Shown: positions 46,853 to 62,253, counted from the first letter of the stretch. The stretch: 64,000 nucleotides of DNA from Candidatus Marinacidobacterales bacterium (GCA_965226495.1 OZ245365.1:2656001-2720000), one strand, 5' to 3'. Made by a program: numbers and translations. The notes: generated by a model from the letters alone, not told the origin.

Positions 46853-47483
46853 ATGGGAACATGCAACCTACTTCAAAGATGGCTCCTCATAATGGGCTTT
46901 CTCTCGCTGTCTTCCGTCTTGCTACCCGCGGCGACTGCCGAGGCGCAAGAAGAAGGGCTCGAACGCGGCAGCCAGCTCATCACTAAGCAACGGGGAGAAC
47001 AAAGACACCAAGGAGTTCGAAAGCGATTGGGCTTTCGGGGGAAGCTACCAGTACTACTTCACCCCCAACTTGAGCGTAGAAGCCAGCGTCACCTTCGCCA
47101 CCGGTGACGCCGAGATCGGCGATGATCTGGAAGACAGCGACGACCAAGGGGATGATGAGAACGGTGAGACCGAGGGTGAAGAAGCTGGAGAAATAAGCGG
47201 TGACGCGCTCTATTTCACCGGCGGCATCGTCTATAACTTCCGTCCTAAAGGCAGGTTCAAGCCGTACGTGACCGGGGGGGCGGGCCTGGTCAGAATCAAC
47301 CTCGACGGAAATAACGAGTCGCGTCCCGCGGGCATATTCGGCGGCGGCTTCATGCTCAACGTGTCACAATCGCTGCTGGTACGTGTCGACGCCCGGGACC
47401 ACCTTTACACCGTGGACCAGGGGGGAGGCTCGACGACACGCAACGATTTGTCTTTGACGGGCGGTGTATCCGTCAAGTTCTAG
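46853..47483 (+). pseudogene. Outer membrane beta-barrel protein, frameshifted
   Basis: Signal peptide in one frame; barrel (FKPYVTGGAG, RVDARD, terminal F) in another. Confidence 0.7.
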
Positions 47484-47812
47484 GCAGCGCTCCCGAGGCT
47501 TCTAAGGGTTTTGGCTCGCCTCGTCGTCATGTGATAGCATTCCCGCCCAGTGCGCTTCGAAAGCAGGGTTTGGGACACTCTCCCCGGCGGTCTGCCGGGG
47601 CCGTGCTGGCATGGCTTCTGCGTCGAAACCACGGTCGCACGAAACTCCTCCTCGCCCTCAACAGTCAACCAGAGGGCAGAATGAGTGTGCTCCTCATGCC
47701 GAACCATTCCCTTGTCGAAAACCGCGCGGTGGGCTGTTAAGATATTACTTTGGGGAGGTCATATGATTTTTTGGACCACACGGGAACGCGAGCCCAGAGT
47801 AAAGGCGAGCTA

Positions 47813-48862
47813 ATGTCGAAGACTGCATCGCTCCAAGAGGCCCAAGCGGTAACCGAAGGTAAGGAGGACACCGTCGGCGACTCGTTTCGGGAGCTCCGAA
47901 ACCTTCTACGCCAACGCAAATGTTTCGAACGCACGCCGGCCGTGTACTTTGTCCTGACTGTCTTGTCGGTCGGCACTTTTGTCGCCGCGTATTACTCGTC
48001 ACTTGCGTCGGCCGGTCTAGTCACACTGATCGCGTCCCTCGCGCTGGCCAGCGCGTGCGGCGTTCAGCTGGCGTATATCGCTCATGACGCCGGCCATGGC
48101 CATATCTCCCGACACGGCTTCGTCAACAAACTCGTGGGGCACATTGCTCTAACGATTACATCCGGTTACGCATTCTCCAGCTGGACTCGCACTCATGACC
48201 AACATCACAGACGCCCGAATGTCGTGGCCCTCGATCCCGATGTCGACACCAAGTGGGTGGTCCTCCATGACTGGGCTCGACCGAAGACGCGGTTGCAGAG
48301 ACTGACGACGCGCCTCCAACATTGGATACTCGTTCCCTACTACACGGTGCATTTGTTCGAGCTCCGACTCCGCGGATTGAAGGACGTTCTGGCATTGCGG
48401 CTTCGTGCAGACGCGCTAGGGCTGGTGCTGCACGTCGTTGGATTTTTGGTTCTGCCGGCGCTCGCGTTTCCTCTTCACAGAGTTCTAGTCTGCTACGTCG
48501 CCCTGTCGGCTGGCAGCGGACTCTACTACGGTCTCATTTTCGCCGTGAACCACATCGGAGCGACGTACCTCCGCTCACACAAGGAAGTTGACTTCGTACG
48601 GCTGCAGGTGCTGAGCAGTCGTAACGTTCTGACGGGTCGATTTGGCGACTTCGTGATGGGAGGCCTCAACTGGCAAATCGAGCACCACTTGTTGCCCCGC
48701 CTTCCGCGCTTTCGGTTACGTAGCGCCAGCGAGTCGATACGGGAATTCTGCGCCCGCCAAGCGCTGCATTACGAGTCAGCCCCCTTCTCCGAGGCGCTGG
48801 GCGCGGTGTTCCGGCATCTCCAGAGACTCTCGCGCGGAGGGGAACAGGCAGGCGACACGTAG
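47813..48862 (+). CDS. Membrane fatty acid desaturase
   Basis: His boxes HDAGH, HDQHH, QIEHH. Confidence 0.9.
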   Translation: MSKTASLQEAQAVTEGKEDTVGDSFRELRNLLRQRKCFERTPAVYFVLTVLSVGTFVAAYYSSLASAGLVTLIASLALASACGVQLAYIAHDAGHGHISRHGFVNKLVGHIALTITSGYAFSSWTRTHDQHHRRPNVVALDPDVDTKWVVLHDWARPKTRLQRLTTRLQHWILVPYYTVHLFELRLRGLKDVLALRLRADALGLVLHVVGFLVLPALAFPLHRVLVCYVALSAGSGLYYGLIFAVNHIGATYLRSHKEVDFVRLQVLSSRNVLTGRFGDFVMGGLNWQIEHHLLPRLPRFRLRSASESIREFCARQALHYESAPFSEALGAVFRHLQRLSRGGEQAGDT

Positions 48863-48979
48863 GCTCGGCCGCACGGCCTGTCCGCGAGTTCTTGACGCAT
48901 ATTGTTACTTTTGGTTACTCGGTCCAGACCCTAGTTGCGCGGCTGGCTCACGTCCAGTCTCGACTGGGGGCGGAAGAAG

Positions 48980-48996
48980 TGGCGTCCCCAAGGGGA
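48980..48996 (-). repeat. att-like copy of the tRNA-Glu 3' end
   Basis: TGGCGTCCCCAAGGGGA, 16/17 identical to 61321-61337. Confidence 0.7.
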
Positions 48997-49033
48997 AATT
49001 CCCAGAAGTACACGCGGATTGGCGGAGGCCAGC

Positions 49034-50119
49034 TTAGTGCCGGGAGTCAATGAGATGGCTAGCCACAGGCCGAAAAGTCAACGAGTAGACCGGCCCGGGC
49101 TCGCGTGCGAGGCTGCCTGATCGCCGGTACCTCTCCATCGTTTCTTTGCCGTAGTCAATCTCAGCTTGGTACCCGTTGTGTGCGGGACACATCATCTGGA
49201 CATTTGTGGGGCTATGGTCACCGTCGCGGGCATAGGGCTGGCGATGGTGAAACTCCAGTCCATGGCGTTCGCGACAGCGTCTACCTCGTGCGTCCACGAA
49301 GGTGCACTGATTTCCGTCCCGCTCGGCAACCGCGCGTCTCACGGGGGCCGGGATATAACGTGACGACGGTGACGTATCGGTCTCTTCGACGCTCTTCCTG
49401 GGGGCTTTCGACTTCCCAAAGCGCCGCGACTCCAGTCGTTCGAGCTTTTCGGTCACCGCCTCTTCTATGATCGCCCCCAGGTCGCCGTCGGGAACCGAGC
49501 CTCGCATGAGCCCGCGCAGTCGCTCGATCTTGTCCTTCAGCTCCGCGCTGGCTGTGAATTGGATTTTGTAGCGAGAAGGCGCTAACGGCTCAACCGGCCT
49601 CAGCCCTTCGGGCTTCGACGACACAACTTGGTCCGGACCTAGTTGAGGTGCCGACGGCCGTTTTGTTTTTGCCCGGGGTACGGGTAGCTTGCGCATCGTC
49701 GTGGGAACGTCCGGCTTGGGTGAGAGCTCGGCCACGAGCTCCTCGATTTCCCGCTTCGACTTGTGTACTGCACGGGCTAGCAAGGTCTCTCGATTGGCCT
49801 CCGTGAGCAGCGGCGCGATCTTCGCGATACTGCTCAAGTGAAGGCGCCCGTCCTCCAGCATCACTAGAAGGACCGGATGCCTTCGCGACGCACGCGCCAC
49901 CGCAATCCGCAGATAGGCTTCCCACTCTGACAGATGCAGGACGTCCGTACAGTACGCGAACATCGACGAGCAAGCTTCACGTGCGTAGAGGCGCCGCTCG
50001 TCTACCTCGGCAATGTGTGCGACCAACTCCGACTCGACGCGTCGCGATTCTTGCACCAGCCCCGATAGGCGGCGAAGTAGATCATCATCCGAAATCGATT
50101 TCAATAACTGCTTAAACAT
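49034..50119 (-). CDS. DUF222-like/HNH endonuclease protein
   Basis: N-terminal LVAHIAEVDERRLY...SSMFAYC; C-terminal RDGNQC..C..LEFHH..G..N..CPAHN. Confidence 0.85.
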   Translation of the reverse strand: MFKQLLKSISDDDLLRRLSGLVQESRRVESELVAHIAEVDERRLYAREACSSMFAYCTDVLHLSEWEAYLRIAVARASRRHPVLLVMLEDGRLHLSSIAKIAPLLTEANRETLLARAVHKSKREIEELVAELSPKPDVPTTMRKLPVPRAKTKRPSAPQLGPDQVVSSKPEGLRPVEPLAPSRYKIQFTASAELKDKIERLRGLMRGSVPDGDLGAIIEEAVTEKLERLESRRFGKSKAPRKSVEETDTSPSSRYIPAPVRRAVAERDGNQCTFVDARGRRCRERHGLEFHHRQPYARDGDHSPTNVQMMCPAHNGYQAEIDYGKETMERYRRSGSLAREPGPVYSLTFRPVASHLIDSRH

Positions 50120-50804
50120 TCCTCGTCCCTCCACAGCACTAATATAGCAACGCACTTTTTTTGGCCTTGAGACGACGTGAGTCGGGAGGAACGCGCTTCG
50201 ACGCCGTTTTTGTCTCGAAGCTTGTACGCGTTGACTAGAGCGTCAACGTCAACTAGAGAGATGGCACCGCGAAAACATCAGAGAAGCTAGCAAAACTTGT
50301 TGTGGGATCTTGTCAAGAGAAAATTATTTTTTTTTCTTGGAGGGACATTGGGGGACATCGTTCAGTCGGTGGGGCAGCTCGCAACCACGAGGAGCCCTCC
50401 CCTATCCGCCCGGGCCGTCGGCGCGCCGGTAGCTATCGAGAGCCTCGAGCCCAACGTGCCACTCTGCGCGATGCGCCGCTTTGGCCTTCCCTGCACCACC
50501 GCGACGTCATGCGTCGCGGGCTACCATTCTTGGTGGATCTCGGGTACCGTAGCGGCGAGGTGGCGCAGGTGGCGCATGCTCGGAAAGAGCTTGTCAGAGT
50601 ATTTGAAATTTCAGAACTGGGTCCTCGTGGTCGAGGTCATACCGCAGCACACGTGAGGAAGTCACGACTAGCGGTCCGACCAGGCCGACCCAGATCCCGC
50701 GTAGTCCGCAACGCCAACGAACAAAAATGCCGGTCACTCGAGTGCTAGTTTCTCCGATCACTACCCGTCCCCACGAGACGCAATAGAGACCATCAGTAGT
50801 CGTC

Positions 50805-50987
50805 ATGGAAGAACAAGTCGTCTTCTGCTGCCCGCACTGCTTGCAGCACTCGTCGGTAACCGTCAATCTGGCCGCCAGGCGCCAGGAGTTCGTTGAAGAC
50901 TGTCAGGTCTGTTGCGCGCCCATTGCGTTCGATATCGAGGTCCGAAACAGCGAAGTCGTTCGCATGGACTACCAGGGGGCAAACTGA
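50805..50987 (+). CDS. CPXCG-motif cysteine-rich protein
   Basis: CPHC...QEFVEDCQVCCAPI. Confidence 0.85.
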   Translation: MEEQVVFCCPHCLQHSSVTVNLAARRQEFVEDCQVCCAPIAFDIEVRNSEVVRMDYQGAN

Positions 50988-51089
50988 TCGCTTGCTGCCG
51001 CTGAATTCGACGATGATTTCATAAGGCTAACGAATCCGAATCCCTCGTTTCCCCACCCAAAGTTGCCTGGTCGTCATGGTTCCCCTCTC

Positions 51090-51164
51090 AAGTCATTGAT
51101 TATGTGGCGTCCCCAGGGGGAGCTATACCCTTTTACGTAAACGGTACGGTGCGGGTGGCGTGAC
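51090..51164. repeat. att-like site: tRNA-Glu 3'-end copy plus element-derived tail
   Basis: 51105-51122 is identical to 61321-61338, both preceded by AAGTCATTGA; the tail is homologous to 57000-57051. Confidence 0.85.
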
Positions 51165-51165
51165 T

Positions 51166-51289
51166 GGTGATGGCGACTTCACGGCCGAGCTTGGTGTCCC
51201 GGGCGCGGTAGACCTCTCCCATTCCCACCCGCGCCAATGGGTTCGAGGATCTCATAGAGACCTAGCTTGGTGCCAGCTTCGAGTGCCAT
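51166..51289 (-). pseudogene. 5' remnant of a Ser/Thr kinase gene
   Basis: MALEAGTKLGLYEILEPIGAG (frameshift) MGEVYRARDTKLGREVAI, then ends at the att-like site. Confidence 0.85.
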
Positions 51290-51292
51290 GAG

Positions 51293-51500
51293 TCAGTTCG
51301 TCGGGACGAGACGCTTCAATTCTTCAAACCAGTTCTGCACGAGGATGAGCTCCGCAGGAGGGGTGTCGTCGCCCGCACCGCCCGCCTTGATCATCAAGAA
51401 ACGCTCACCGTTGGGAGACACGTCGTAGCTACGACCGGCCACTGCAGAAGAGTAATAGGCTCGTAAACCGGGCATGGCTTGCAGCTCCTCAAAGAGACAT
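51293..51500 (-). pseudogene. Collapsed Ser/Thr kinase-TolB gene (possible start plus 3' tail only)
   Basis: RSYDVSPNGERFLMIK...VQNWFEELKRLVPTN paralogous to the end of the 54227 gene; ATG TCT CTT overlaps the previous stop. Confidence 0.8.
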
Positions 51501-54223
51501 CATCTGCGCTCGAGCTCCTGGCTCCAGTTCAAGATCACCTCCAGTTCCGTAATGTCGTCCCGGGCGATCTCCTCGTGGCGCGTCGCGAAGAAGCGCTCCC
51601 CGTCAGAGGTGACGTCGTAGCCTCGCACCGGTGCGCCGCCCATCAGCGGCGCTTGGAACAAGAGCTGCGGCCGCCCGGCTGAGAATTCCGGGCGGGTTTC
51701 GATAGCGACAGCGAAGAAGTCGTTCTCTTTGCGATAGATCAGCTCCGCTCCCTGTTTCGTCCAGGCCGGCGTATCGCCTCCATTCGTGGACACCTGGTGT
51801 CGTCCGCCGGGACCGGGAAAGGGCTCGACCCACACCTCCTCGTTTCCCGTATCATCGGACGTATAGGCAATCCATGCACCATCCGGTGAGATCTCGGGAA
51901 ACTCCTCGTTCCACGACGTCTGCTTGAACGGTCTCGTCGTCTCCCCCTCGCCGAAAGTTTTGATCCAGATGTCGTGCCCGGTGCCATCCCCAGTCGTTAC
52001 GTAAGCGAGGACCTTCCCGTCCGGGGTCCAGGAGGACGGATAATGCGGGGTGTCCCCCAGCGTCAACACCTCCGTGGGCGCGCTGGTATCCGATACGCGC
52101 CAAACGGAACCGCCCCGACCGGAACCAAACGCAATTCGCTCTCCCGTTGGACTCCAGAGCGGGAAAACGCCTTCGGAAACCCGGCGCCACGCCATTCGCG
52201 TAAGGTCGACGATTTCAATAGCGGTCTCCACGCCAAGCGCGAGGAACCGGCCATCTGGAGAGAGGCGTGGTGCCCAGTAGTGGCGCGGTTCCACATCCCA
52301 AACGCTCTCGTTCCCACGACGATCCAGCTCGATGATGGAAGATTTGTGCACCGGGTACGGACCTCCCTTGACGAGGACCAGGCTCCCCGAAGACGACACC
52401 GCGAATTGGCCGGCGTTGGTATGGTTAAAAGGAATGGTGCCTCGAACGGCTTGCATGATGTTCTCGACGACGAGGGTCGGTTCACTGCTCGTTTCTCCTT
52501 TCACCGCGTCGAACGGCGCCGCCCAGAGATTCCCTTCCCGCGCGAAAACCAGGTGACCTGGCTCTACAAAACGAGCATCGGAACCCTCGCCCAGCACACG
52601 GTGTTCGCCGTCATCGTTCAACTGCTGGATCCCGATGCGACCGATGCGATCCGCCGCAGAATCGACCACGGTGAAGAGGACCGCTTCGCCATGCGGCAGG
52701 GCGTGGGGGAGACGATGCGCATATTCTCCGTCGTCACGTCGCACTTCCGTGAGCGGGGAAACCTCGCCGCCTCGCGACGGTACTTTCCACAAGCCTCCGA
52801 GAAACGTCGCGAAAACAATCTCGCCCTCGAGCGTCCAGGTGCCCCCGAAGAAGTTCGCACTCGCATCGAGCCAGCCGGGGATGAGCCTCGTGTAAGAGGC
52901 GTCGTTCTCGAACGCGGCCATCCCTACGATGGTGATGGGCGTTCCGCCGGCGGTACGTACCCTTCTCAGGCTACCGTTCGCGAAGTAGGCGACCCATTCG
53001 CCGTCGGGCGAGAAGAAGGGAGCCACGGCGTCCTCGGTGCCGGCGATGGGAGTCGCCTCCGCTCGATCGAGCTGCCGCCGATAGAGCATCGATTGCTCTC
53101 CGGTGGTCCCACTGAAGACGATCTCGCGCCCATCGGGAGAAAGGGCAAAAGCCGTCAATCGGGGCCGGCCATACGAGGTATCGCTTTGAAGCATCGTTGC
53201 GGGACGGAGTCCCATGCGTAAATGGGTGATTGCCGGTGACGGATCGACGCGAGCGCGAAAAAGCCCCCCGGCCAGAGTACCCAGCAACAATGCGCCGACG
53301 ACCGCAAACAGCCACATCTTCTTCGGAGCTTCCGGCCGGGCTTCTCTAGCGCGCGGCTCCGGGGGCTCCGTCAGAGCCTCTTCCATCTCGATCCGGGCGT
53401 CGGCGATGTCATGAAGTCGCCGATTGGCGTCCTTCTGTAGACATCGGCGCAGCACAACACGTACGCCTGGTGTCGTGGATTCGGGCAGCGCCTTCCAATT
53501 CGGATCGCGTTCTAAGATCCCGGCGATGGTGTCGGAGAGGGTGTCTCCCTGGAAGACCATGCGACCCGTGAGCGCTTCATAGAGACAGCAACCAAAAGCC
53601 CAGATGTCTGTCCGCTTGTCTACGGTTTTTCCACGGGCTTGCTCCGGGCTCATGTAGGCCGCGGTGCCGAGAATGACACCGGTCGCTGTTGCATCTCGGG
53701 TGATGGTCGGCGACTCGGACACCTCACTCTTCACGGGGTCGGCGCTCATCGCCTTGGCCAGACCGAAGTCGAGGACCTTCACTTTGCCTTCGGAGCTGAC
53801 CTTGATGTTCGCCGGTTTCAGATCGCGGTGGATGATTCCTTTCTCGTGAGCCGCCTCCACCGCTTCGGCTATCTGTTTGAAGATGGGAAGAGCGTCCTCG
53901 ACTGGCATAGGGCCGAGCCGGAGCCGCTCTGCGAGAGTTTCTCCGTCGGCGAGTTCCATGACGAGGAACTGGACTCCGTTGGATTGTTCGAAGCCGTAGA
54001 GAGTAGCGATGTTGGGATGATTCAGAGATGCGAGAAGACGCGCTTCGCGCTCGAAGCGGGCTAGGCGTTCTTCGTTCTCGGCGAAGGCTTCGGGCAGGAC
54101 TTTGATCGCAACTTCACGGCCAAGCTTGGTGTCCCGGGCGCGGTAGACCTCTCCCATTCCACCCGCGCCAATGGGATCGAGGATCTCGTACTCGGCGAGC
54201 TTGGTGCCGGGTTCGAGTGCCAT
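51500..54223 (-). CDS. Ser/Thr protein kinase with TM and TolB-like beta-propeller
   Basis: GAGGMGEVY, HRDLKPAN, DFG, SPE; SPDG repeats. Confidence 0.95.
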   Translation of the reverse strand: MALEPGTKLAEYEILDPIGAGGMGEVYRARDTKLGREVAIKVLPEAFAENEERLARFEREARLLASLNHPNIATLYGFEQSNGVQFLVMELADGETLAERLRLGPMPVEDALPIFKQIAEAVEAAHEKGIIHRDLKPANIKVSSEGKVKVLDFGLAKAMSADPVKSEVSESPTITRDATATGVILGTAAYMSPEQARGKTVDKRTDIWAFGCCLYEALTGRMVFQGDTLSDTIAGILERDPNWKALPESTTPGVRVVLRRCLQKDANRRLHDIADARIEMEEALTEPPEPRAREARPEAPKKMWLFAVVGALLLGTLAGGLFRARVDPSPAITHLRMGLRPATMLQSDTSYGRPRLTAFALSPDGREIVFSGTTGEQSMLYRRQLDRAEATPIAGTEDAVAPFFSPDGEWVAYFANGSLRRVRTAGGTPITIVGMAAFENDASYTRLIPGWLDASANFFGGTWTLEGEIVFATFLGGLWKVPSRGGEVSPLTEVRRDDGEYAHRLPHALPHGEAVLFTVVDSAADRIGRIGIQQLNDDGEHRVLGEGSDARFVEPGHLVFAREGNLWAAPFDAVKGETSSEPTLVVENIMQAVRGTIPFNHTNAGQFAVSSSGSLVLVKGGPYPVHKSSIIELDRRGNESVWDVEPRHYWAPRLSPDGRFLALGVETAIEIVDLTRMAWRRVSEGVFPLWSPTGERIAFGSGRGGSVWRVSDTSAPTEVLTLGDTPHYPSSWTPDGKVLAYVTTGDGTGHDIWIKTFGEGETTRPFKQTSWNEEFPEISPDGAWIAYTSDDTGNEEVWVEPFPGPGGRHQVSTNGGDTPAWTKQGAELIYRKENDFFAVAIETRPEFSAGRPQLLFQAPLMGGAPVRGYDVTSDGERFFATRHEEIARDDITELEVILNWSQELERR

Positions 54224-54226
54224 AGG

Positions 54227-56887
54227 TTAGTTGGTGGGAACGAGGCGCTTCAGCTCCTCGAGCCAGTTGAGGACAACGTTGATTTGCGTGAGGCCTGAGC
54301 CCTCTGCGGTCCGAATCATGACGAATCGGCCATCCGGCGCTACGTCGTAATTGGTGGCGGGATTTCCAGCCGACACCCCTGATAGATAACGTCCCTCGAA
54401 CAGCAAAGTCGGTTTCCCCGGAGCTAGCTCCGGCTCCGTCGAGATGGCGACCGCCATCATCTTGTCGCCGTTCCGGTAGAAGAGCTCCCGACCGTCTCGG
54501 GACCACATGGGCTCCGTACCGCCGTCGGTCGATACTTGCCACTTGCCGCCGAGGTCGGGGAAGGGCCTCACGTAGATCTCTTCTCGACCAGACTCGTTGG
54601 AGACATAGGTCAGCCAGCGGTCGTCGGGTGAGAGCATCCCGGTGTGCTCTTCGAAGGGTGTCTGAAGGAGCATCTCCGGCTCGCTCTCACCCTCCAGGCG
54701 GACCATCCCGATGTCGCGACCCGTGATGTCACTATTTTGTCTGAAGACGATCGTCTTCCCATCCGAGGAGATAGATGTGGGTACGCGGTAGGCCCCCGTC
54801 GTCAGTTGCTCGGCGGTGCCGCTTCCGTCCGCGAGCTTGGAGAAAATATTGAAGTCGCCCCCGCCTCGATTCGATCCGAAGATGACCCGTTCACCGTCTC
54901 GCGACCAGATGAACCTTATACTCGTGCCCCCAAAAGTCAGCCGGGTCAAGGTGCCGCGCCCGAGCGCGAACACCCAGACGTCATAGCCGTTTTCGCCCAC
55001 GATAGAGACGGCGAGGCGCTGGCCATCCGGTGAAAGGCGGGGGTCAAAATACCCCCGCAATCCTTCCGCCACAGGTTGCTCCACTCCGTGACGGTCGACC
55101 CAGACCAACTCGCCGGGGATCGCGAGTAAGGTGCCGGACGCGTAGAGCAGCGAACCGTCCTTGGAAAGGCTGAATTGTCCTGCGTCCCCAGCGATGATAT
55201 CCCTGCCGACATCCTCGAGGACGGGAACCGAGGAACCGGCGACCTCGAGCCGCTCGAGATCGAAGGGCATCGCCAGCAGCGAGTTCGCTCGTTGAAAGAC
55301 GATGTGACCGGTGGGGACGTAGTGAGGGTTGCTGCCGCCCTCCGCCAGAATCCGCCGCTCACCCGTTTCCAGCGACTGCACAACAATGCTTGTGTTTCGC
55401 GCGCTGCGCCAGATCGTGTAAAGCAACGCCTTGCCTCCCGGTAGAATCTCGGGCCAGCGCGGGTGCCCTTTTTCTTCGGGGTCGAGGACCGTTACGGGCT
55501 CTGGTGTGCCCCCGGAAGCGGAAACGCGGAAGAGCTCTGACCCAACACTCCGTGAAAAGAAGATCGTGTCATCGGGTCCCCAGCTTGCTCCAAAAAAGGT
55601 GACCACATTGCAGAGGGTCAACGGTGCCCCGCCGGTAATGGAAACCTTCTTGAGCTCGCCTCCAGCATGAAAACCGACCCACTGCCCGTCGGGTGAGAAG
55701 AAGGGGCCACGCGCTCCGTCGGTGCCTGGGAGGGGCGTGGCCTCCAACTGGTCGATGGGGCGCAAATGAAGCCGGGAGGTGCCGCCGCCGCTGCGGGCGA
55801 CGTACACGAGGTTCTGGCCGTCGGGTGAGATGGACAACCCGCCGATGTCGGCTACAAACTCGTCGCCCGGCGGCAGGCGGATGGCAAATCGCTTGAGGGG
55901 AAGCGGGGCGGGGCGGGTCAGGCTCCAAACGACCACGCCCGCCAAGACGGCCCCGAGGAGTACGAGGGCGAGTCCCCCCGGAATGCTTCGGCGGACCATA
56001 GAGGTTTCCGCTTTGCTTGCCGCCCTACCCCCTTCCCCAATCCACTTCACCTCGTCCATGAGGTCATGAGCCGTATGCCAACGGTCTTCCGGGTCTTTCG
56101 CAAGGCATTTCTTGACGACACGGTCGAGCGCCGCCGGAGCCACCGCGCGAAGCTCCGATACGGGGCGGGGCTCGCTCGACATGATCGCGGCGATCAAACT
56201 CGCGGTGCTGTCGCCTTCGAAAGCCTTTTTGCCCGTCACCATCTCGTAGAGCACGGCTCCGAACGCGAAGATATCCGTTCGAGCATCGGCTTCTTTGCCT
56301 TCGAGCTGCTCCGGAGCCATGTACTGGAACGTCCCGAGGATCGAGCCTTCTTTCGTAAGCGGCTGCGCTTCAGTCGGCAACGCCGATAGACCACCGGCAT
56401 TCGTTGCCGCTACCGACATCTTGGCAAGGCCGAAGTCGAGAAGCTTAGCGCCGGATTTCGTCAGCATGATGTTTCCGGGCTTCAAATCACGATGCACGAC
56501 GCCTTGACGATGGGCTTTGTCGAGAGCGTCGGCAATTTCGATTCCGTATTGCAACGCTTGGTCGAGCGGTAGCGCACCTTTCTTCAACCGATCAGCGAGG
56601 GTATCTCCTTCGATGTGCTCCATGACCATGAAGTCGATGCCGTTCTCGCTGCCGATGTCGTGAAGCGTGCATATGTTGGGATGGTTCAGGCTGGAGACGG
56701 CGCGGGCTTCTCGCTCGAATCGCTGGCGAACTTCGGGATGGCTGGCTACATGAGAGGGAAGGACTTTGATGGCAACGGTGCGGTCGAGGCGCGTGTCTTT
56801 GGCCTTGTAAACCTCACCCATGCCACCTGCCCCAAGAGGTGCGAGGATTTCATAGGGACCCAGCTTAGTGCCGGGGGTTAATGACAT
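54227..56887 (-). CDS. Ser/Thr protein kinase with TM and TolB-like beta-propeller
   Basis: GAGGMGEVY, HRDLKPGN, DFG, APE; SPDG repeats. Confidence 0.95.
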   Translation of the reverse strand: MSLTPGTKLGPYEILAPLGAGGMGEVYKAKDTRLDRTVAIKVLPSHVASHPEVRQRFEREARAVSSLNHPNICTLHDIGSENGIDFMVMEHIEGDTLADRLKKGALPLDQALQYGIEIADALDKAHRQGVVHRDLKPGNIMLTKSGAKLLDFGLAKMSVAATNAGGLSALPTEAQPLTKEGSILGTFQYMAPEQLEGKEADARTDIFAFGAVLYEMVTGKKAFEGDSTASLIAAIMSSEPRPVSELRAVAPAALDRVVKKCLAKDPEDRWHTAHDLMDEVKWIGEGGRAASKAETSMVRRSIPGGLALVLLGAVLAGVVVWSLTRPAPLPLKRFAIRLPPGDEFVADIGGLSISPDGQNLVYVARSGGGTSRLHLRPIDQLEATPLPGTDGARGPFFSPDGQWVGFHAGGELKKVSITGGAPLTLCNVVTFFGASWGPDDTIFFSRSVGSELFRVSASGGTPEPVTVLDPEEKGHPRWPEILPGGKALLYTIWRSARNTSIVVQSLETGERRILAEGGSNPHYVPTGHIVFQRANSLLAMPFDLERLEVAGSSVPVLEDVGRDIIAGDAGQFSLSKDGSLLYASGTLLAIPGELVWVDRHGVEQPVAEGLRGYFDPRLSPDGQRLAVSIVGENGYDVWVFALGRGTLTRLTFGGTSIRFIWSRDGERVIFGSNRGGGDFNIFSKLADGSGTAEQLTTGAYRVPTSISSDGKTIVFRQNSDITGRDIGMVRLEGESEPEMLLQTPFEEHTGMLSPDDRWLTYVSNESGREEIYVRPFPDLGGKWQVSTDGGTEPMWSRDGRELFYRNGDKMMAVAISTEPELAPGKPTLLFEGRYLSGVSAGNPATNYDVAPDGRFVMIRTAEGSGLTQINVVLNWLEELKRLVPTN

Positions 56888-56999
56888 GGCTAGCCCGTTG
56901 AAGGAGAAAATAGCCTTGCACAGGCTGAAAAGTCAATAAAGGAGAGATGGCCGACGGAATTGGGTGGGGGATTCGCCTTAGCCGTCAGGGCTTATATCG

Positions 57000-57051
57000 C
57001 CAGGGGAGGTATTCCCTTTTACGTAAGTGGCACGGTGCGGGCGGCGTGACT
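57000..57051. repeat. Second copy of the att-associated tail
   Basis: CCAGGGGAGGTATTCCCTTTTACGTAAGTGGCACGGTGCGGGCGGCGTGACT aligns with 51113-51165. Confidence 0.8.
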
Positions 57052-57190
57052 ATCTGACCTGCTCGCCGTCCACTACGAGCTTCTCAAGCACCCAGTTTCG
57101 CTGTGTATTGGTTCAGCGGGAACGCGACATTGCGGTTAGCAGGATAACGCAGTCGAACACGTGTTGGACTGAGGCTGTTGAAACGGACGA

Positions 57191-58183
57191 TCACGCTGGT
57201 GTCTCCCGGAGTTGAGCGCGGCGTTGACGTCGAAGCTCGCGAGCCGCCTCGAGCTTAGCATCGCGTTGGGTCCAGATGATGTGTTCTCGGCCAGCGAGCT
57301 TGTCGGCGGGTGCGATGTAGCCTGTGGCGCTGTGAAGACGCTTGTCGTTGTAGTAGGTGACGAAGGACGCGACGAGGCGACGGGCGTCGTCGACGGACGC
57401 TGGAGCATTGGGCCGGATGGTCGTGGTTTTGAGCGTCTTGTGCCACGCCTCGATCTTGCCGTTGGACTGCGGGTAGTAGGGTGCGGTTCGAACGTGGGTC
57501 ATGCCTGAGAGTCGAATGAACGCCTTGAAGTCGCGAGCGATGAACTGCGGTCCGTTGTCGCTGATGATGCGAGGGCGAGCATCGGGAAACTTCTCGCGTG
57601 CTCGCTGCAGGATGGTCTCGACTTCGGACTCCTTCATCGACTCGCGGATTTCCCAATGGACAATGAAACGGCTGTAGCCGTCGAGAATCGAGCACAGATA
57701 GTAGAAGGTCCCGGCGAGGTTGAGGTACGAGATGTCGATATGCCAGTGCTTGTGAGCCCCGTCAGGCTGCACGAATCCGCTACCCTTCTTCGATGGCCGA
57801 CCATTGAAGCGATCGAGACGGCCCGCGTCCCGCAGCGTCCGGAACGCCGTCGACGGGCTCACGGCGACGACATCCTCGTCGAGCATCATGAAGCTTAGGC
57901 GACGATAGCCGTCGAGGGGATGGGCATCGAAGTAGTCGAGGATCGCCTCTCGCTCCCGCGCTTCGATCCAGTGATCTCGCGGAATCTTGCCGTTATGCTC
58001 GTGGGCGCGGCCGTAGTGGTCTTTCCACGCGTAGTATTTTCCACGGGCGACACCCAACCACGCTGCGAACCGCGTCGCCGGCAGCTCGGTTGTAGCCGAC
58101 CACTTCGTCACGAAGTCCACGACCTCGTCTCGGGTATCGGGGGGGACCCAGCGACCCGTCAGGGCTCCCCAAGTTCTTTTTTT
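57191..58183 (-). CDS. IS3 transposase OrfB (DDE), reached by -1 frameshift
   Basis: WHIDISY, SDNGPQF, PQSNGKIE, YNDKRLHS; A7G slippery site at 58176-58183. Confidence 0.9.
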   Translation of the reverse strand, partial: KKRTWGALTGRWVPPDTRDEVVDFVTKWSATTELPATRFAAWLGVARGKYYAWKDHYGRAHEHNGKIPRDHWIEAREREAILDYFDAHPLDGYRRLSFMMLDEDVVAVSPSTAFRTLRDAGRLDRFNGRPSKKGSGFVQPDGAHKHWHIDISYLNLAGTFYYLCSILDGYSRFIVHWEIRESMKESEVETILQRAREKFPDARPRIISDNGPQFIARDFKAFIRLSGMTHVRTAPYYPQSNGKIEAWHKTLKTTTIRPNAPASVDDARRLVASFVTYYNDKRLHSATGYIAPADKLAGREHIIWTQRDAKLEAARELRRQRRAQLRETPA

Positions 58184-58485
58184 AGGCGTACAAACTCTTC
58201 CGACACCTCCGCGATCACGTTGTCCTTCTTCGCGAGCTTTGCCCTCAACGATTCGATCTCGCGCGCGAGCCTTTCCTCCTGCCCGTTGCTCTTGCGATGC
58301 CGTGCGCCCCCGTCGAGAGAGGCGGCCATATTCTCCATCAGCTGACGCTGCCAGTTGTAGAACACGCTCGGCTGGATGCCGTGCTCGTCGCACACGTCCG
58401 ACACGGGCTTCTTGTCCACAAGGTGCTGGCGCAGCAACGCGGCCTTTTCCTCGGCGCTGAACTTTCGGCGGGTTTGATGGCTCAT
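58159..58485 (-). CDS. IS3 transposase OrfA
   Basis: RRKFSAEEKA..VSDVCDEHGI..FYNWQRQ HTH and leucine zipper. Confidence 0.88.
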   Translation of the reverse strand: MSHQTRRKFSAEEKAALLRQHLVDKKPVSDVCDEHGIQPSVFYNWQRQLMENMAASLDGGARHRKSNGQEERLAREIESLRAKLAKKDNVIAEVSEEFVRLKKELGEP

Positions 58486-58550
58486 CTGTGACTCCTCTGG
58501 GCTCCTTATCTTGGAGCCGGTTGGTGTCACGTTTCAACTGAACTAGAACA

Positions 58551-59184
58551 GGTCCGGGCCCAGGGCCTTCTCCCATATCGCCAGCGAACGTTGGTAAAGC
58601 GGCTCGGCCTGTGCGTACTGGCCTTGGGTGTCGTAGAGCAAGGCCAGGTTGTTCAGGCTCGTAGCCACATCGGGGTGGTCCGGGCCCAGGGCCTTCTCCC
58701 ATATCGCCAGCGAACGTTGGTAGAGCGGCTCGGCCTGCGCGTACTGGCCTTGGGTTTGGTAGAGCAAGGCCAGGTTGTTCAGGCTCGTAGCCACACCGGG
58801 GTGGTCCGGGCCCAGGGCCTTCTCCCATATCGCCAGCGAACGTTGGTAGAGCGGCTCGGCCTGTGCGTACTGGCCTTGGATTCGGTAGAGCAAGGCCAGG
58901 TTGTTCAGGCTCTCGGCCACATCGGGATGGTCCGGGCCGATGTTTTTCTCGGCTACCTCGAGGGCCTTCTTGGTGACAACAACGGCACGGTCATATTCGC
59001 CCGTACGATAAAGCTCCAGGGACTCCTGATTAAGGAGGTCCCACTCGGCCTCGCGCTGTTGCACTTCGAGCAGACTGGGGCCAGCGCCCTCGTTTGTAGG
59101 CTCAGGTTGATTCGTCCACACGCCGACGGTCAGCACCACACCCACGAGCACAACCCATAACAAGATCGTGCGTCCTGTCGTCAT
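58551..59184 (-). pseudogene. Membrane-anchored TPR protein (42-aa kinesin-light-chain-like repeats) truncated by IS3
   Basis: About three 126-bp repeats GPDHPDVATSLNNLALLY..QGQYAQAEPLYQRSLAIWEKAL, cut at the IS end. Confidence 0.88.
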
Positions 59185-59499
59185 TGTCTCGGGCCACCCT
59201 TATCACAAGTGGGATATTGCCCGCTACAGGTCGCCCGCCCGTGAGATGCGCGTCTGACCGGAAGTCTGACCTACGGATTGTGTGTCCGAGGCACCCTCGC
59301 AAGCTACACTGGCCTTGAGACTTCTGAGAGCTGGTGCCCATTTGGTGCCAAGTATGAAGGCGTCAAAACCCGCAAAGAAAGCCTACAAATCGCAGCAAAA
59401 GCATGGACTTACGCGCCTGGAGATATTGTCACATCCCGTGGACGAAACAGCCGATCCAACCCTCAGACTACTGGCCTCGCAGGGGTATGTGCGCCGTCT

Positions 59500-59730
59500 G
59501 TGTGGGTCCCCTCGACCCCTCCAAAGTGCGGAAGGATTTCCAGCGGTTGCTGAAGAGGGCGGAGATACTGCGCCGCCGGGTGTATGACTCGCAGCACACG
59601 TTTGGCTCGCTGCGACTCGCTGAAGGAACCCCACTCACCTTACGTGAGCCACCAGATGGGCCACAGCTCACCGGAGACGACACTCCGCTACTACGCTCGG
59701 TGGATACCTGACACCAAGTCTCGGTGGTTT
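59500..59730 (+). pseudogene. Tyrosine integrase C-terminal remnant
   Basis: FQRLLKRA..YDSQHTFGSL..G (frameshift) YVSHQMGHSSPETTLRYYARWIP. Confidence 0.8.
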
Positions 59731-59796
59731 GGAACCAAATCTGGAACCAAAGGCGATTTCGACGATGAACGATCCGCGCAAGTTGTTGGATCTACA

Positions 59797-59843
59797 TGGA
59801 GCCGGCGAGAGGATTTGAACCTCCGACCTGCTGATTACGAATC
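59797..59843 (-). other. 3' half of tRNA-Thr(CGT) as att core; not a full tRNA
   Basis: GATTCGTAATCAGCAGGTCGGAGGTTCAAATCCTCTCGCCGGCTCCA; no D-arm or 5' acceptor strand. Confidence 0.85.
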
Positions 59844-60344
59844 CTCTCAGGGGAAAGCTGAGAAGACCGAGCAGAACCAAGAGCGCCAAAAACGGAGAAA
59901 AAGCAAGGACTACGCGTAGTGTTCATGTCTTCCCGGTTCAGCACCTTCAGCCACGTTGGTGACCAATTGGTGACCAAATCCATCGGAGTCGGCGCGAGGG
60001 ATTTCCTGGGGACAGTGACTTCATCAGATACTTGCCCAAAAGAAACGCGGAGGATTTTAAGTCCCCGGCCCGCGCCTATTAATAATGTCACTCCCGATCA
60101 CACTTGTCACAAAATCAGGTACTTAGGGCGGTTACACGAGAACAGCCGGACTGACTCTTCACACCCATCCCCCCGGCGGGAGACACTCCGTAACCGCCTT
60201 GCCCGGTTTGCTCGAGTTCTGCTATCCTCACCAGGACTCACTCGGACTGCACAGCCCCATTCTGGTGGGGAAAATTCGCGGGCCGGCGCTCGGGAGCGTA
60301 TGAATTTTCCTATCCTTAGGTCTTCGCCTGGAATCGCTGGCAGG

Positions 60345-60854
60345 CTAGTGCCTGTTGAAGATGATTCGGGCATGCTTCCACGATCCGTCCGACTGCCGCC
60401 GGAGAATGTCGATGGCCTTCACATGCCATGGAACCGATTCTCCGTTCGCTTTCAAGGTCCGGGTTCCCTTGATCGTACTCCGATGGATCGCCCAATCCCC
60501 AGCCACGATCACCTCCTCGTGTGTCAATTTCAGCTCGAAGTCGGCCCCAGCAAAACGGCGGGCCAGATACTCCCGGAAAAGCTCACGTCCCACCATCGTC
60601 GGCTCGTCGGCGGGTATATAGACAATGTCCTCGACCGCTAGCGCGGCGAGCGCGTCGGCATCACCATCAACCTGCGCCTGGACTGCCGCCTCTCGCACAC
60701 TCTTGATCGCTTCGGTATCTGCATCGAGGGTATTGGGGGCAACTTGCAAAGTGGAGCATCCAAACACGCCGCCACAAGCGAGGACGCGAATGACGCTGAC
60801 TATGGCTCGCTGAACAAAAATCGTCATGACGACTCTCCTAAATAGGCGCCACAC
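60345..60854 (-). CDS. DUF4440/SnoaL-like (NTF2 fold) protein
   Basis: GDADALAAL, VIVAGDWA, ILRRQSDGSWK; start uncertain. Confidence 0.8.
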   Translation of the reverse strand: MWRLFRRVVMTIFVQRAIVSVIRVLACGGVFGCSTLQVAPNTLDADTEAIKSVREAAVQAQVDGDADALAALAVEDIVYIPADEPTMVGRELFREYLARRFAGADFELKLTHEEVIVAGDWAIHRSTIKGTRTLKANGESVPWHVKAIDILRRQSDGSWKHARIIFNRH

Positions 60855-60889
60855 ATGTGAACCTGGAGCTTCCTACTACGCTCCGGCTT

Positions 60890-61276
60890 CTATCCGTTGT
60901 ACAGGTCGAAGCACGTCACGGTTATCGGATGCCTATTGCCCGGCTTTATATTCACACGTCCCGGTGATACAAGCGCGCGCTGGATGGCACGCGCAATCGC
61001 CTTCTTGATCTCTTCTTCCGTCGGGAAGTCGTTTCGCCCTATGGGCTGGGTGTTTGGCGGCGTTGAGTTTCGCTGAGTATCGCTCAGCGACACTCGAAAG
61101 GAATAGCCGCCATCGCGCTTCTCTTCTACGAACCAACTTTCTCCGTCCTGACCTGGGTTGGTTACCTTGGCCCACTGTACTTCTTTCAGCTGTCCGACCT
61201 TCTTGCCAAAAGGCTCATATTGAATTGTCACGGCGTCCTCCCCTCCCGGCCTGGGTTCGACATCCGTTCGACTCAC
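60890..61276 (-). CDS. Hypothetical protein
   Basis: 128-aa ORF with GGAG upstream; no recognised motif. Confidence 0.5.
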   Translation of the reverse strand: MSRTDVEPRPGGEDAVTIQYEPFGKKVGQLKEVQWAKVTNPGQDGESWFVEEKRDGGYSFRVSLSDTQRNSTPPNTQPIGRNDFPTEEEIKKAIARAIQRALVSPGRVNIKPGNRHPITVTCFDLYNG

Positions 61277-61320
61277 GCTCCGTTTTCCCTGTGTAATTCC
61301 TTTTAAGTCATTGAATTAAA

Positions 61321-61396
61321 TGGCGTCCCCAGGGGGAGTCGAACCCCCGTTTTCGCCGTGAAAGGGCGACGTCCTGGGCCACTAGACGATGGGGAC
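61321..61396 (-). tRNA. tRNA-Glu(TTC)
   Basis: GTCCCCATCGTCTAGTGG...CTTTCAC...GGTTCGACTCCCCCTGGGGACGCCA cloverleaf with CCA. Confidence 0.97.
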
Positions 61397-61409
61397 AAAA
61401 GGGGCCAAA

Positions 61410-61485
61410 TGGTGAGCCGTGCCGGGCTCGAACCGGCGACCCTCTGCTTAAAAGGCAGACGCTCTGCCAACTGAGCTAACGGCCC
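61410..61485 (-). tRNA. tRNA-Lys(TTT)
   Basis: GGGCCGTTAGCTCAGTTGG...CTTTTAA...GGTTCGAGCCCGGCACGGCTCACCA. Confidence 0.97.
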
Positions 61486-61531
61486 GGGTCATTCTAGGCC
61501 GTTTGCGGCAGCCGGTCAACGTTTCGTGCCG

Positions 61532-62233
61532 TTACGGGTCCCACTGCTCCTCGAGCCATTTAGCGGCCCGTCGAAGATGTCGCCCGTACTCTGGAACTTG
61601 AAAATGGGTGATTCCCTGGACGACGAGTAGCTTGGCCGGGGCTCCATGCGATTCGAGGGTTTTCACTGCTTCATTCGCGGGGCCGATGGGCACAACTTCG
61701 TCATCCCGGCTGTGGATGACGTACAGAGGCATCTTGTCGAGCATTTCAACGGTCCCCGCAGGCGGTGAGCCGGCGACGACGATAGCGGCAGAGAACACTT
61801 CTGGATGGTGCGCCGCCATATACCAGGCTCCTGCGCCGCCCATACTGAATCCGGTGACCACGATGCGATCCCGATCGATGGCGTAGTTCTGGAGGATGTG
61901 ATCGAGAAGCACCATGACCTCGGTCTCGCTCTTAGGGTTCGCCCAACCCCGATACGGGCAGTCTGGGGCCACGAGGACGGCTCCCAATTTCTCGAGGCCC
62001 GGCTCGACGAGCCGTATTAGGAAATCCTTCCCGTAGAAGGGGGTGACCCGGCCGCCGTAATGAAGGGCCAGAACCAACGGCCGCGGTTGGTCGGGTTCGT
62101 AACCGTCGGGAACCGATACCGTGAATCGTAGGACTCGCGCGTCAGGCCGTTCGAGGGTCCCCTCGTGCAGTCCTGAGCTCTGCGGGAGCTGTGCGCCAAG
62201 CCCCAGGAACAGAGGAAGCACGAGAGAAAGCAA
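61532..62233 (-). CDS. Secreted alpha/beta hydrolase (predicted peptidase/esterase)
   Basis: PLVLALHYGG, GFSMG nucleophile elbow, HSRDDEVV; start uncertain. Confidence 0.8.
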   Translation of the reverse strand: MLSLVLPLFLGLGAQLPQSSGLHEGTLERPDARVLRFTVSVPDGYEPDQPRPLVLALHYGGRVTPFYGKDFLIRLVEPGLEKLGAVLVAPDCPYRGWANPKSETEVMVLLDHILQNYAIDRDRIVVTGFSMGGAGAWYMAAHHPEVFSAAIVVAGSPPAGTVEMLDKMPLYVIHSRDDEVVPIGPANEAVKTLESHGAPAKLLVVQGITHFQVPEYGRHLRRAAKWLEEQWDP

Positions 62234-62253
62234 AGCGAGCGTCTTACGCCGTT

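Follow-up and report, generated by a model that had tools for sequence, protein, structure and literature searches.

The window, that is the whole 64,000-nt stretch of DNA that was analysed, contains a tRNA-Glu gene and, downstream of it, 12.3 kb of sequence reaching to position 48980, with the following features:

48980-49028, minus strand: site A, composed of the tRNA 3' end (48980-48997, 2 mismatches) and a strongly decayed arm
49029-49064, minus strand: kinase promoter/5'UTR and first ~10 codons (ATG changed to ATC), truncated at site A
49034-50155, minus strand: HNH endonuclease, DUF222-like (Pfam HNH, E 0.001)
50805-50987, plus strand: Cys-rich CPXCG protein of 60 aa (Pfam PF14255, E 1.5e-15)
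51090-51165, minus strand: site B, composed of class-1 flank (51090-51104), exact 18-nt tRNA 3' end (51105-51122) and arm P* (51123-51165)
51166-51290, minus strand: kinase N-terminal fragment of ~40 codons, frameshifted and fused directly to the arm P* of site B
51293-51475, minus strand: kinase C-terminal fragment, ending in NWFEELKRLVPTN before the stop
51500-56887, minus strand: two tandem genes for Ser/Thr kinases with PD40 beta-propeller, 51500-54223 and 54227-56887 (Pfam)
56994-57051, minus strand: site C, composed of arm P* (57013-57051, 88% to site B) and a degenerate core (about 57000-57012, CCAGGGGAGG)
57050-59184, minus strand: TPR-repeat gene split by an insertion sequence into 58551-59184 and 57050-57103 (Pfam)
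57104-58550, minus strand: IS3-family insertion sequence with orfA/orfB, inserted into the TPR gene (Pfam)
59508-59919, plus strand: tyrosine-integrase C-terminal pseudogene (comparison with the tRNA-Asn integrase)
59730-59751, plus strand: direct repeat, two copies of TGGAACCAAA, arm-site-like, inside the integrase read-through
59791-59843, minus strand: 53-nt 3' fragment of tRNA-Thr(CGU)
60134-60317, no strand assigned: 184-nt dispersed repeat, MITE-like (13 other genome matches, 80-92% identity)
60345-60854, minus strand: SnoaL-like protein, by tRNA-Glu (Pfam)
60890-61276, minus strand: 128-aa ORF by tRNA-Glu, without convincing Pfam match
61300-61320, minus strand: class-1 flank directly 3' of tRNA-Glu, sense strand beginning TTTAATTCAATGACTT (sequence comparison)
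61321-61396, minus strand: tRNA-Glu(UUC), the intact target gene (ARAGORN; Rfam tRNA, 62.4 bits)
61410-61485, minus strand: tRNA-Lys(UUU), upstream neighbour of tRNA-Glu (ARAGORN)

The gene at 61321-61396 is the sole tRNA-Glu(ttc) of the whole genome, and its pairing with tRNA-Lys is kept in relatives. Its 3' 18 nt (61321-61338, TGGCGTCCCCAGGGGGAG) constitute a repeated core, O, which recurred without mismatch at 51105-51122 and with 2 mismatches (16/18) at 48980-48997. Three matches at no more than 2 mismatches compare with 0.02 expected, and three were reached in 0 of 100 shuffles. Identity was not limited to the core: 51090-51122 and 61305-61338 are 91% identical over 33-34 nt, AAGTCATTGA included. 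A previous sequence-only reading of this DNA had reported an 18/18 copy with upstream flank at 51105-51122 and a 16/17 copy at 48980-48996. Our data confirmed both, the former being exact with ~15 nt of flank that also matches, the latter being the same match as the 16/18 one over 48980-48997.

Site B is a P-O-P'-type junction. Its arm was found again at site C (88% identity over 49 nt between 51117-51165 and 57003-57051), as had already been observed for 57000-57051, and the stop codon of the TPR gene (57050-57052) abuts the end of this site. Sites A, B and C share one orientation, on the tRNA-antisense strand, downstream of tRNA-Glu. The class-1 flank, which also follows tRNA-Glu in genomes G001, G004, G008, G012, G014, G022 and G034, is clear at the tRNA and at site B, degenerate at site C and absent at site A, the outermost site, whose outer flank is of another kind. 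Only three copies of the arm exist in the genome. The third one, at 206378-206432 (the 206k copy), is identical to site B in its core-proximal part (31/31), has a core of only 13 nt, adjoins an HNH-kinase pair and lies far from any tRNA-Glu. The arm gave no match in Rfam.

GC content was flat along the region (0.58-0.61). The kinases belong to a family with ~91 kinase-domain matches in the genome and the HNH gene is one of 31 paralogues (both by tblastn); the truncated kinase start at 49029-49064 is 92% identical to 56860-56895. The element at 57104-58550 belongs to the IS3 family, with overlapping ORFs, an A7G slippery run near 58180, rve (DDE) and rve_3 domains and three further genome copies of 99.8-99.9% identity. 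In the integrase pseudogene, the segment 59508-59709 shares 48-49% identity, with one frameshift, with residues 190-256 of the tRNA-Asn integrase of the same genome, and its frame stays open across the tRNA-Thr core as far as the stop codon 59917-59919 (…KDYA). The tRNA-Thr fragment itself is an attP-type core of a different element. A search of the whole genome for PF00589 placed no match in the window, and no tRNA-Glu-specific integrase there. The earlier statement that no integrase gene remains beside these sites needs to be amended for the pseudogene at 59508-59709 and the IS3 transposase; it stands insofar as neither is an integrase of the tRNA-Glu site.

All three sites fall in 15 kb that are missing from two congeners, G001 and G002, both of which lack the 51.1-61.3 kb interval. 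G001 has nothing of the region between ileS and tRNA-Glu, which are 581 nt apart, and in G002 the order is desaturase, a remnant of the HNH-upstream sequence, a kinase C-terminal fragment and tRNA-Glu. The HNH-kinase-arm block of the 206k locus is missing there in both. Homologous junctions of arm and tRNA end were detected in four other genomes of two families, G003, G022, G036 and G008, each with an exact 18-22 nt of its own tRNA-Glu end and a related arm. They lie 6.5 kb (G003), 28.5 kb (G022) and 5.6 kb (G036) downstream of tRNA-Glu; for the G008 junction, the distance of 4.9 kb is to a non-adjacent second copy of the tRNA-Glu end. The G003 junction bears the tRNA-end variant of that genome (TGGTATC). 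In G022, three sites form a clear tandem series: the tRNA is followed by a 45-nt block at 22.8 kb and by the junction at 28.5 kb, and a PF00589 tyrosine integrase (E 1e-24) lies beside the middle one. The class-1 flank is present there on the tRNA and the middle site, not on the outermost. The G008 array has a PF00589 tyrosine integrase as well (E 2e-24), and the G003 and G036 junctions are without one. Of 110 ORFs with at least part of their length inside 1.8 kb of tRNA-Glu in 45 further genomes, none had a PF00589 domain. In assembled contigs from four public runs, the 51105/61338 junction that excision would produce was absent among the 15 joints listed, with 253 more existing. In inverted form, the arm copies the sequence that stands directly after tRNA-Glu in G002 (0/2000 shuffles) and G005 (6/2000), a relation that was unexpected and that a simple integration model does not predict.

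We consider it probable that the 12.3 kb from 48980 to tRNA-Glu are a decayed, mosaic array of elements integrated at the 3' end of tRNA-Glu(UUC). The repeats, their orientation, the absence of the region from congeners and the homologous junctions with integrases in other genera point in this direction, and we infer from them serial, integrase-mediated integration rather than duplication of one unit, with a crossover presumably near the T-loop boundary of 18-20-nt identity. With each integration, a tyrosine integrase would duplicate ~18 nt from the very end of the tRNA, to which later events would add ~15 nt of flank, leaving behind junctions of element arm P*, tRNA 3' end and flank. Three junctions of this form survive, all oriented alike: site C (57000), site B (51105) and site A (48980). 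The integrases that would have made them are gone. The interior has been overwritten, as is shown in part, by paralogous kinase/HNH modules, the IS3 element, the dispersed repeat and part of a different element, represented by the integrase pseudogene with its tRNA-Thr core. A class-1 flank on the inner sites and not on the outermost, as seen here and in G022, is expected of a tandem array, and the debris inside the region (the IS3 element with its four genome copies, the integrase pseudogene, the dispersed repeat) is supportive. The same genome has an analogous series at tRNA-Asn, with two direct repeats of 58-59 nt behind an intact integrase. As to the earlier proposal of at least three related elements integrated serially, the three co-oriented att remnants are real and have homologous junctions elsewhere, and the seriality is the inferred part. 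Several observations count against the array: no tRNA-Glu-specific integrase in the window or within 1.8 kb of tRNA-Glu in the 45 other genomes, the flat GC content, an arm copy at 206k, away from tRNA-Glu, the kinase sequence that precedes sites A, B and the 206k copy, and the relation of the arm to inverted post-tRNA sequence in G002 and G005.

Genomic islands and prophages can integrate at tRNA 3' ends via tyrosine integrases, and tandem arrays with integrase-less remnants arise by accretion ('CIME'-type). Like such islands, the present region is bounded on one side by an intact tRNA, whose 3' end recurs in co-oriented direct repeats; its content varies between close relatives, it contains mobile-element debris, and there are relatives with an integrase in the array. 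It differs from them in that no cognate integrase is left, its composition is not deviant, its cargo consists mostly of host-like expanded families (PD40 kinases, HNH) and its arm is, in some relatives, an inverted copy of post-tRNA sequence. Arrangements of integrases and tRNAs are surveyed in PMC2951348.

The integrase ORFs at tRNA-Asn and tRNA-Asp of this genome, like the tRNA-Thr-type pseudogene at 59508-59919, run across their att cores, and integration therefore rewrites the ends of these ORFs. The sequence-only reading had put forward such a swap of C-termini by integration; this is true for the Asn and Asp integrases, but their tails are not of the AA type. For the Asn and Asp elements the tails of the excised form were computed, and for the Thr-type remnant the tail was read directly; all are K-rich and none ends in VA or AA. 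In the integrase family, the post-catalytic linker holds an arm-like DNA repeat that is read as GTK, WNQ or EPK, and in different frames, in different homologues (checked at the DNA level in only 2 cases), so that it is not conserved as protein. When 112 homologues were scored with a crude motif list, 59 had tRNA-antisense-like ends.

On the gene strand, a kinase gene or a piece of one precedes each of site A, site B and the 206k copy, so that a duplicated HNH-kinase-arm unit could yield the series without repeated integration. This alternative, which we regard as unlikely, supposes duplication and unequal recombination of one ancestral HNH - kinase - arm - tRNA-end unit; that crossovers took place at the 13-18-nt core and at kinase/HNH paralogues, with only one original att scar ever, seems equally unlikely to us. 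It would account for the HNH gene that precedes site A and the 206k copy, for the 31 HNH and ~91 kinase-domain copies, for the 31/31 identity of site B and 206k across core and arm, for a 206k block that G001 and G002 lack at that locus, for the flat GC content and for the HNH gene beside the G036 junction. However, the flank pattern agrees with the one in G022, which has an integrase, the junctions of G022, G008 and G036 have no adjacent kinase, and the G003 junction has the tRNA variant of G003 itself, which recombination with the resident tRNA would lead one to expect. In another explanation, the arm serves the kinase family as a regulatory element or terminator and has an incidental likeness to the tRNA end. 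In G003 and at 206k, a kinase stop codon precedes the arm by 28-58 nt, and at site C the arm lies about 115 nt ahead of the start of kinase 2. Yet three arm copies face ~91 kinases, Rfam gave no match, junctions without kinases exist in G022, G008 and G036, and the 18/18 core plus flank of site B cannot be incidental; we find this explanation scarcely credible.

A further alternative takes the arm as the C-terminal tail (VA/AA) of an attP-spanning gene, probably an integrase, degradable when excised and tRNA-antisense when integrated. The plus-strand translations on which it was built were correctly quoted, and frame and stop are kept in three of the four copies of arm family f1 (site B …VRVA, site C …VRAA, G003 …VLVA, each given up to its stop). 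In family f2 (…RGFIWRNEAVA in G022 and G008, …RGFIWRHEAA in G036) the 36-nt and 3-nt indels are in frame and all tails end in Ala. The Asn and Asp integrases and the pseudogene that read across their cores, and the 59 of 112 homologues mentioned above, speak for it as well. Against this, the 206k copy is broken by an early stop (PFYVS), and the differences between B, C and G003 show no excess at third codon positions. The stop-to-stop frames with tails comprise 48 codons (51017-51163) and 51 codons (56894-57049) here and 48, 51, 73, 81 and 86 codons across the copies, none of them long. At tRNA-Glu itself the plus-strand frame 61320-61361 has 13 codons, with TAA immediately preceding ATG, and in 8 genomes with the class-1 flank type the frame is open for just 1-43 codons upstream of CCA. 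Among longer proteins (75-2000 aa) in 5.8 billion protein clusters none carried the tail at E<=10, pattern scans of viral and metagenome contigs gave 0 matches, of 120 integrase homologues none ran into tRNA-Glu, and PF00589 was absent near tRNA-Glu in the 45 other genomes, where no recombinase extends into this tRNA. The K-rich tails of the Asn, Asp and Thr-type integrases and their unconserved linker also argue against it. The claim that the post-core sequence is an integrase C-terminus with an AA-type degron is not supported, as there is no long ORF, no protein carrier and a stop in 206k, and we rate it as very improbable. Most likely, the tails are the plus-strand reading of arm P*, that is of non-coding att-arm DNA, and similarity of the DNA accounts for the similarity of the peptides.

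Two known systems are close to the idea of a swapped C-terminus. In the mycobacteriophage BPs and its relatives, as described in PMC3694055, immunity depends on integration, attP is located within the repressor gene, and both Rep and Int have degradation tags at their C-termini. The crossing integrases of this genome share with that system an att core inside an ORF and a C-terminus changed by integration. The present case differs from it in that the core at the tRNA-Glu sites is not spanned by any ORF, repressor or integrase, the crossing ORFs are integrases and not repressors, their ends after the catalytic tyrosine are variable and the degron is putative. SSV-type 'suicidal' integrases have the att site inside the integrase gene and are described as archaea-exclusive in PMC8371274. 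The tRNA-Asn and tRNA-Asp integrases and the 59508-59919 pseudogene likewise have the core within their ORF. With SSV-type enzymes, the gene is broken up by integration into Int(N) and Int(C), whereas here the enzyme stays whole and exchanges no more than the roughly 30-85 non-conserved residues that extend beyond the catalytic tyrosine.

The tails read from the tRNA-Glu scars end in …VRVA, …VRAA, …EAVA and …EAA, each before a stop. We give little credence to the possibility that an acidobacterial integrase family has no stop between catalytic domain and att core, and that the arm tails at tRNA-Glu preserve in fossil form the C-terminus which a lost tRNA-Glu integrase had in the excised state and which would act as a state-dependent stability tag. 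Since no stop would precede the att core, each integration or excision would rewrite the C-terminus, tRNA-antisense-coded when integrated and arm-coded when excised. If true, this would be a bacterial, milder counterpart of the archaeal 'suicidal' integrases and of integration-dependent immunity.

The only tRNA-Glu(UUC) gene of the 6.34-Mb source genome (anticodon ttc; 61321-61396) has further copies of its 3' end on the ileS side. The 18-mer TGGCGTCCCCAGGGGGAG, on the plus strand the antisense of this 3' end, was found without mismatch at 61321-61338 and at 51105-51122 (site B), and with two mismatches at 48980-48997 (site A). At up to two mismatches there were three matches where 0.02 were expected, and none of 100 shuffles reached three. 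At site B the match extended into the flank (51090-51122 against 61305-61338, 91% identity) and included AAGTCATTGA. The sequence beside the site-B core, here called the arm, recurred at site C (51117-51165, 49 nt, 88% against 57003-57051), and a third genomic copy was present at 206378-206432 (the 206k copy), identical over all 31 core-proximal nucleotides. The repeats and coordinates of the sequence-only reading, and its plus-strand translations of the arms, could be reproduced. Seventeen nucleotides of the site-B flank (AAGTCATTGATTATGTG) also recurred exactly in an AT-rich spacer at 3991912-3991928, with no tRNA-like sequence adjoining; a further tyrosine integrase (3993028-3994047) lies 1.1 kb away. 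From the tRNA pair towards ileS, the region was organized as follows.

61410-61485, minus strand: tRNA-Lys (ARAGORN and Rfam)
61321-61396, minus strand: tRNA-Glu(UUC) (ARAGORN and Rfam)
60345-61276: 128-aa ORF for which Pfam gave nothing convincing, then a SnoaL-like gene
60134-60317: dispersed repeat of 184 nt with 13 other matches in the genome
59730-59751: direct repeat, TGGAACCAAA twice, between an integrase catalytic tyrosine and an att core
59508-59709: tyrosine-integrase C-terminal pseudogene, its frame open to a stop at 59917-59919
57104-58550: IS3-family element, interrupting a TPR gene
57000: site C, between the TPR gene with its IS and the kinase pair
54227-56887 and 51500-54223: two tandem Ser/Thr kinase-PD40 genes
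Next: a kinase C-terminal fragment, then 40 codons of a kinase N terminus joined to the site-B arm
Between site B and the HNH gene: CPXCG gene
49034-50155: HNH (DUF222-like) gene, then a kinase promoter with ten codons, then site A
Beyond site A: fatty-acid desaturase, outer-membrane-protein fragment and ileS

GC content was flat across the region (0.58-0.61), and the Rfam scan returned matches to tRNA-Glu and tRNA-Lys only. Elsewhere in the genome ARAGORN placed two tRNA-SeC genes 2.4 kb apart (173953-174050 and 176351-176447). The interrupted TPR-repeat gene consisted of 126-nt tandem units, and the IS3-family element had four genomic copies, 99.8-99.9% identical, one with an internal deletion. 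The earlier statement that no integrase gene is left beside the sites has to be qualified: the pseudogene at 59508-59709 lies there, although it belongs to a tRNA-Thr-type element. It carries one frameshift, shares 48-49% identity with residues 190-256 of the tRNA-Asn integrase of the same genome, and its frame passes through a 53-nt tRNA-Thr(CGU) fragment (59791-59843). The 352-nt segment holding this fragment (59781-60132) was 94% identical to 1349096-1349447 in the tRNA-Asp island, so that different islands have att-region pieces in common.

The locus differed among relatives. In G001, a congener, the distance from ileS to tRNA-Glu is 581 nt, and a copper amine oxidase fragment is all that lies in between; in G002, also congeneric, the order is desaturase, HNH-module remnant, the last ~17 kinase codons and tRNA-Glu. 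Within the genus, the 15 kb that separate ileS from the tRNA thus vary. Contigs of runs X19, X1, X2 and X3 placed on 46300-62300 were fragmented and mostly paralogues. In G003, from another genus, a 6.5-kb kinase array separates tRNA-Glu from a junction copy that has G003's own tRNA-end variant. When all 55 genomes belonging to the order were scanned for the pattern and loci were inspected directly, further junctions came to light in G022, G008 and G036; in each, a mismatch-free stretch of 20-22 nt from that genome's tRNA-Glu end is joined to a related arm (CCTTTTCCGTAA...). None of the conclusions depends on G007, a genome flagged as unpublished. The G022 junction lies 28.5 kb from the tRNA, with a 45-nt tRNA block at 22.8 kb that adjoins a PF00589 integrase (E 1e-24); the G008 junction lies away from the tRNA-Glu gene itself, and the distinct tRNA-Glu-end copy found 4.9 kb from it likewise adjoins an integrase (E 2e-24); the G036 junction lies 5.6 kb from the tRNA. 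An alignment of the junctions (A1) showed a common architecture. In G005 a tRNA-Glu fragment adjoins recA, with no integrase there. G002 further holds a 46-nt tRNA-Glu 3' fragment (98% identical; contig G002:C1, locus L017, 11452-11497) 415 nt downstream of tRNA-Asn, where an HNH module with kinase fragments on its sides adjoins it; att material from tRNA-Glu thus also occurs at another tRNA.

The main rival to serial integration would be that an HNH-kinase-arm unit was duplicated and recombined to give the series. The 206k copy speaks for it, having only 13 nt of core and adjoining an HNH-kinase pair that is absent at that locus from G001 and G002; it shows that movement or copying of the unit does not always need tRNA-Glu as a target. 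The abundance of paralogues points the same way: 31 DUF222-like HNH genes (49034-50155 in the window, 209439-210539 and 29 others), in many cases with a PD40 Ser/Thr kinase gene immediately downstream, and about 91 kinase-domain matches, so that the HNH-kinase pairs look like a copied module. The distribution of flanks bears on integration. The class-1 flank (AATCAATGA(C/G)TTA), the type directly 3' of tRNA-Glu in the source genome, was present there at the tRNA and at site B, degenerate at C and absent at the outermost site A; in G022 it was present at the tRNA and the middle site and absent at the outermost one. Such a pattern is what would be expected of a tandem element array whose last junction abuts native DNA. 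Neither site A nor the outermost G022 site had an outer flank significantly like class 2, the other recurrent flank type. We regard the tRNA-Glu series as a real, decayed tandem att-site series, of a kind already well known.

Two side observations concern the HNH genes. One also adjoins the G036 tRNA-Glu junction, and three tRNA-Asp anticodon-arm matches of 17-22 nt (2411648-2411664, 2779457-2779478 and 6138799-6138815) sit exactly between HNH and kinase genes.

As to the origin of the arm, its plus strand was clearly homologous to the sequence directly 3' of tRNA-Glu in G002, on the tRNA sense strand (score 31 against 12.6 ± 2.8; 0 of 2000 shuffles). For the G005 flank 6 of 2000 shuffles did as well; G003 and G016 showed a weaker likeness, and the other family none. 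Of the two flank types that recur at tRNA-Glu, the arm is thus a copy of one in inverted orientation. G003 would be explained if a symmetric attP had entered a site that carried the other type, but this would leave unexplained why the source genome has only arm-core-flank-1 junctions. An IS end was rejected as its identity, since the IS3 element stops at 57104 and 52 nt separate it from the arm. A decayed tRNA-Glu copy was not supported either: local-alignment scores against the rest of the tRNA antisense were matched by 334, 70, 935 and 574 of 2000 shuffles, and the resemblance by eye of CCCTTTTACGTAA in the arm to the antisense of the T-stem to anticodon-loop region (ACCCCCGTTTTCGCCGTGAAAGG) is not statistically supported. 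Wide scans found the arm pattern at one locus among genome contigs (L018, in a MAG labelled Candidatus Marinacidobacterales); both patterns gave no match in metagenome contigs and none in viral contigs, and no active tRNA-Glu element was found in any of the three sets.

The sequence-only reading had proposed that the arm encodes a degradable integrase C-terminal tail ending in VA or AA, exchanged for a tRNA-antisense tail upon integration. We consider this coding-tail and degron reading unsupported and very improbable. No recombinase reading into tRNA-Glu was found in the 45 relatives examined or among the best 120 integrase homologues. About 3.5 kb downstream of tRNA-Glu was taken from 40 further genomes (two loci were below 1 kb), which with G001-G005 made up the 45; the ORFs of the source genome were scanned separately. 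Of 142 ORFs that passed a 140-aa cut, the 32 longer ones were set aside, and the remaining 110 (140-700 aa, overlapping at least in part the 1.8 kb next to the tRNA end) gave no match to PF00589 at E <= 1e-5. In G028, pieces of a serine recombinase read towards tRNA-Glu. Upstream of the CCA, the proposed frame was open for 1, 1, 43, 38, 22, 3, 3 and 3 codons in the eight genomes with the class-1 flank. Measured from stop to stop, the frames holding the tails comprised 48 and 51 codons in the window; those of G008, G036 and G022 comprised 73-86. Frame and stop were kept in three of the four close copies; the 206k copy, however, is broken, its frame stopping after PFYVS. Differences between the B, C and G003 arms, judged by reading the alignment, were not concentrated at third codon positions. 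In the other arm family, in-frame indels (36 and 3 nt) distinguish the G022/G008 tails from that of G036, and each tail has alanine as its last residue. No longer protein sharing words with the G036 or site-B frame was found at E up to 10 in a collection of 5.8 billion protein clusters, which is weak evidence.

Part of the proposal holds for integrases at other tRNAs. The frame of the tRNA-Asn integrase (5757520-5758548; locus L111, 9548-10549) spans the entire tRNA in antisense, and that of the tRNA-Asp integrase (1345624-1346943) ends 57 nt inside its tRNA, also antisense. These intact frames cross the core into the tRNA, and integration therefore sets their last 20-50 residues. The window pseudogene has the attP configuration, its frame running through the tRNA-Thr core. 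Following the Asn and Asp frames into the distal repeat copies gave the excised-form ends PIRTKLTAPKKT and GKASNQNKGRKKEPKKSAS, and the Thr-type remnant, read directly, ends in QGKAEKTEQNQERQKRRKSKDYA, each followed by a stop; all are lysine-rich and none of the three ends in VA or AA. The tRNA-Asn gene has two co-oriented 58-59-nt repeats of its 3' part and flank (5749632-5749689 and 5752196-5752253), 8.8 and 6.2 kb away behind the intact integrase, which we take as a second tandem att series in this genome, comparable to that of tRNA-Glu.

A search with the Asn integrase yielded 627 proteins at E <= 1e-20. Among the best 120 of these, 112 carried the catalytic motif (by regular expression), followed by a median of 69 residues; 59 of the 112 had tRNA-antisense-like ends according to a crude set of motifs drawn up once the ends had been read, and none of the 120 read into tRNA-Glu. 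Depending on the homologue, the repeat in the linker after the catalytic motif reads GTK..GTK, WNQ..WNQ or EPK..EPK. In both cases for which DNA was available it is a direct repeat, at 59730-59751 in the window and, for tRNA-Asn, as GTTGGCACCAAA twice at about 5758330-5758360, likewise between catalytic tyrosine and att core. Back-translation suggests one DNA repeat read in three frames, a candidate arm-type binding site. If this is right, the linker would be att-arm DNA that happens to be open, without protein conservation. The frame-variable linker and the lack of AA-type ends speak against a conserved protein function of the read-through. A non-exhaustive literature search found no account of integration at tRNA genes exchanging the ends of bacterial integrase ORFs. 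Older papers on actinomycete elements may mention int-attP overlap.

In conclusion, the locus appears to be an ordinary decayed integration hotspot that alone changes little. Within this order of marine acidobacteria it marks tRNA-Glu(UUC) as a target used repeatedly, with a recognizable junction signature, an exact 18-22 nt tRNA end joined to a CCTTTT(A/C)CGTAA-type arm. The read-through of the integrases could matter more than the locus itself: if it is more than annotation read-through, it would offer a simple route to integrase properties that depend on the integration state.
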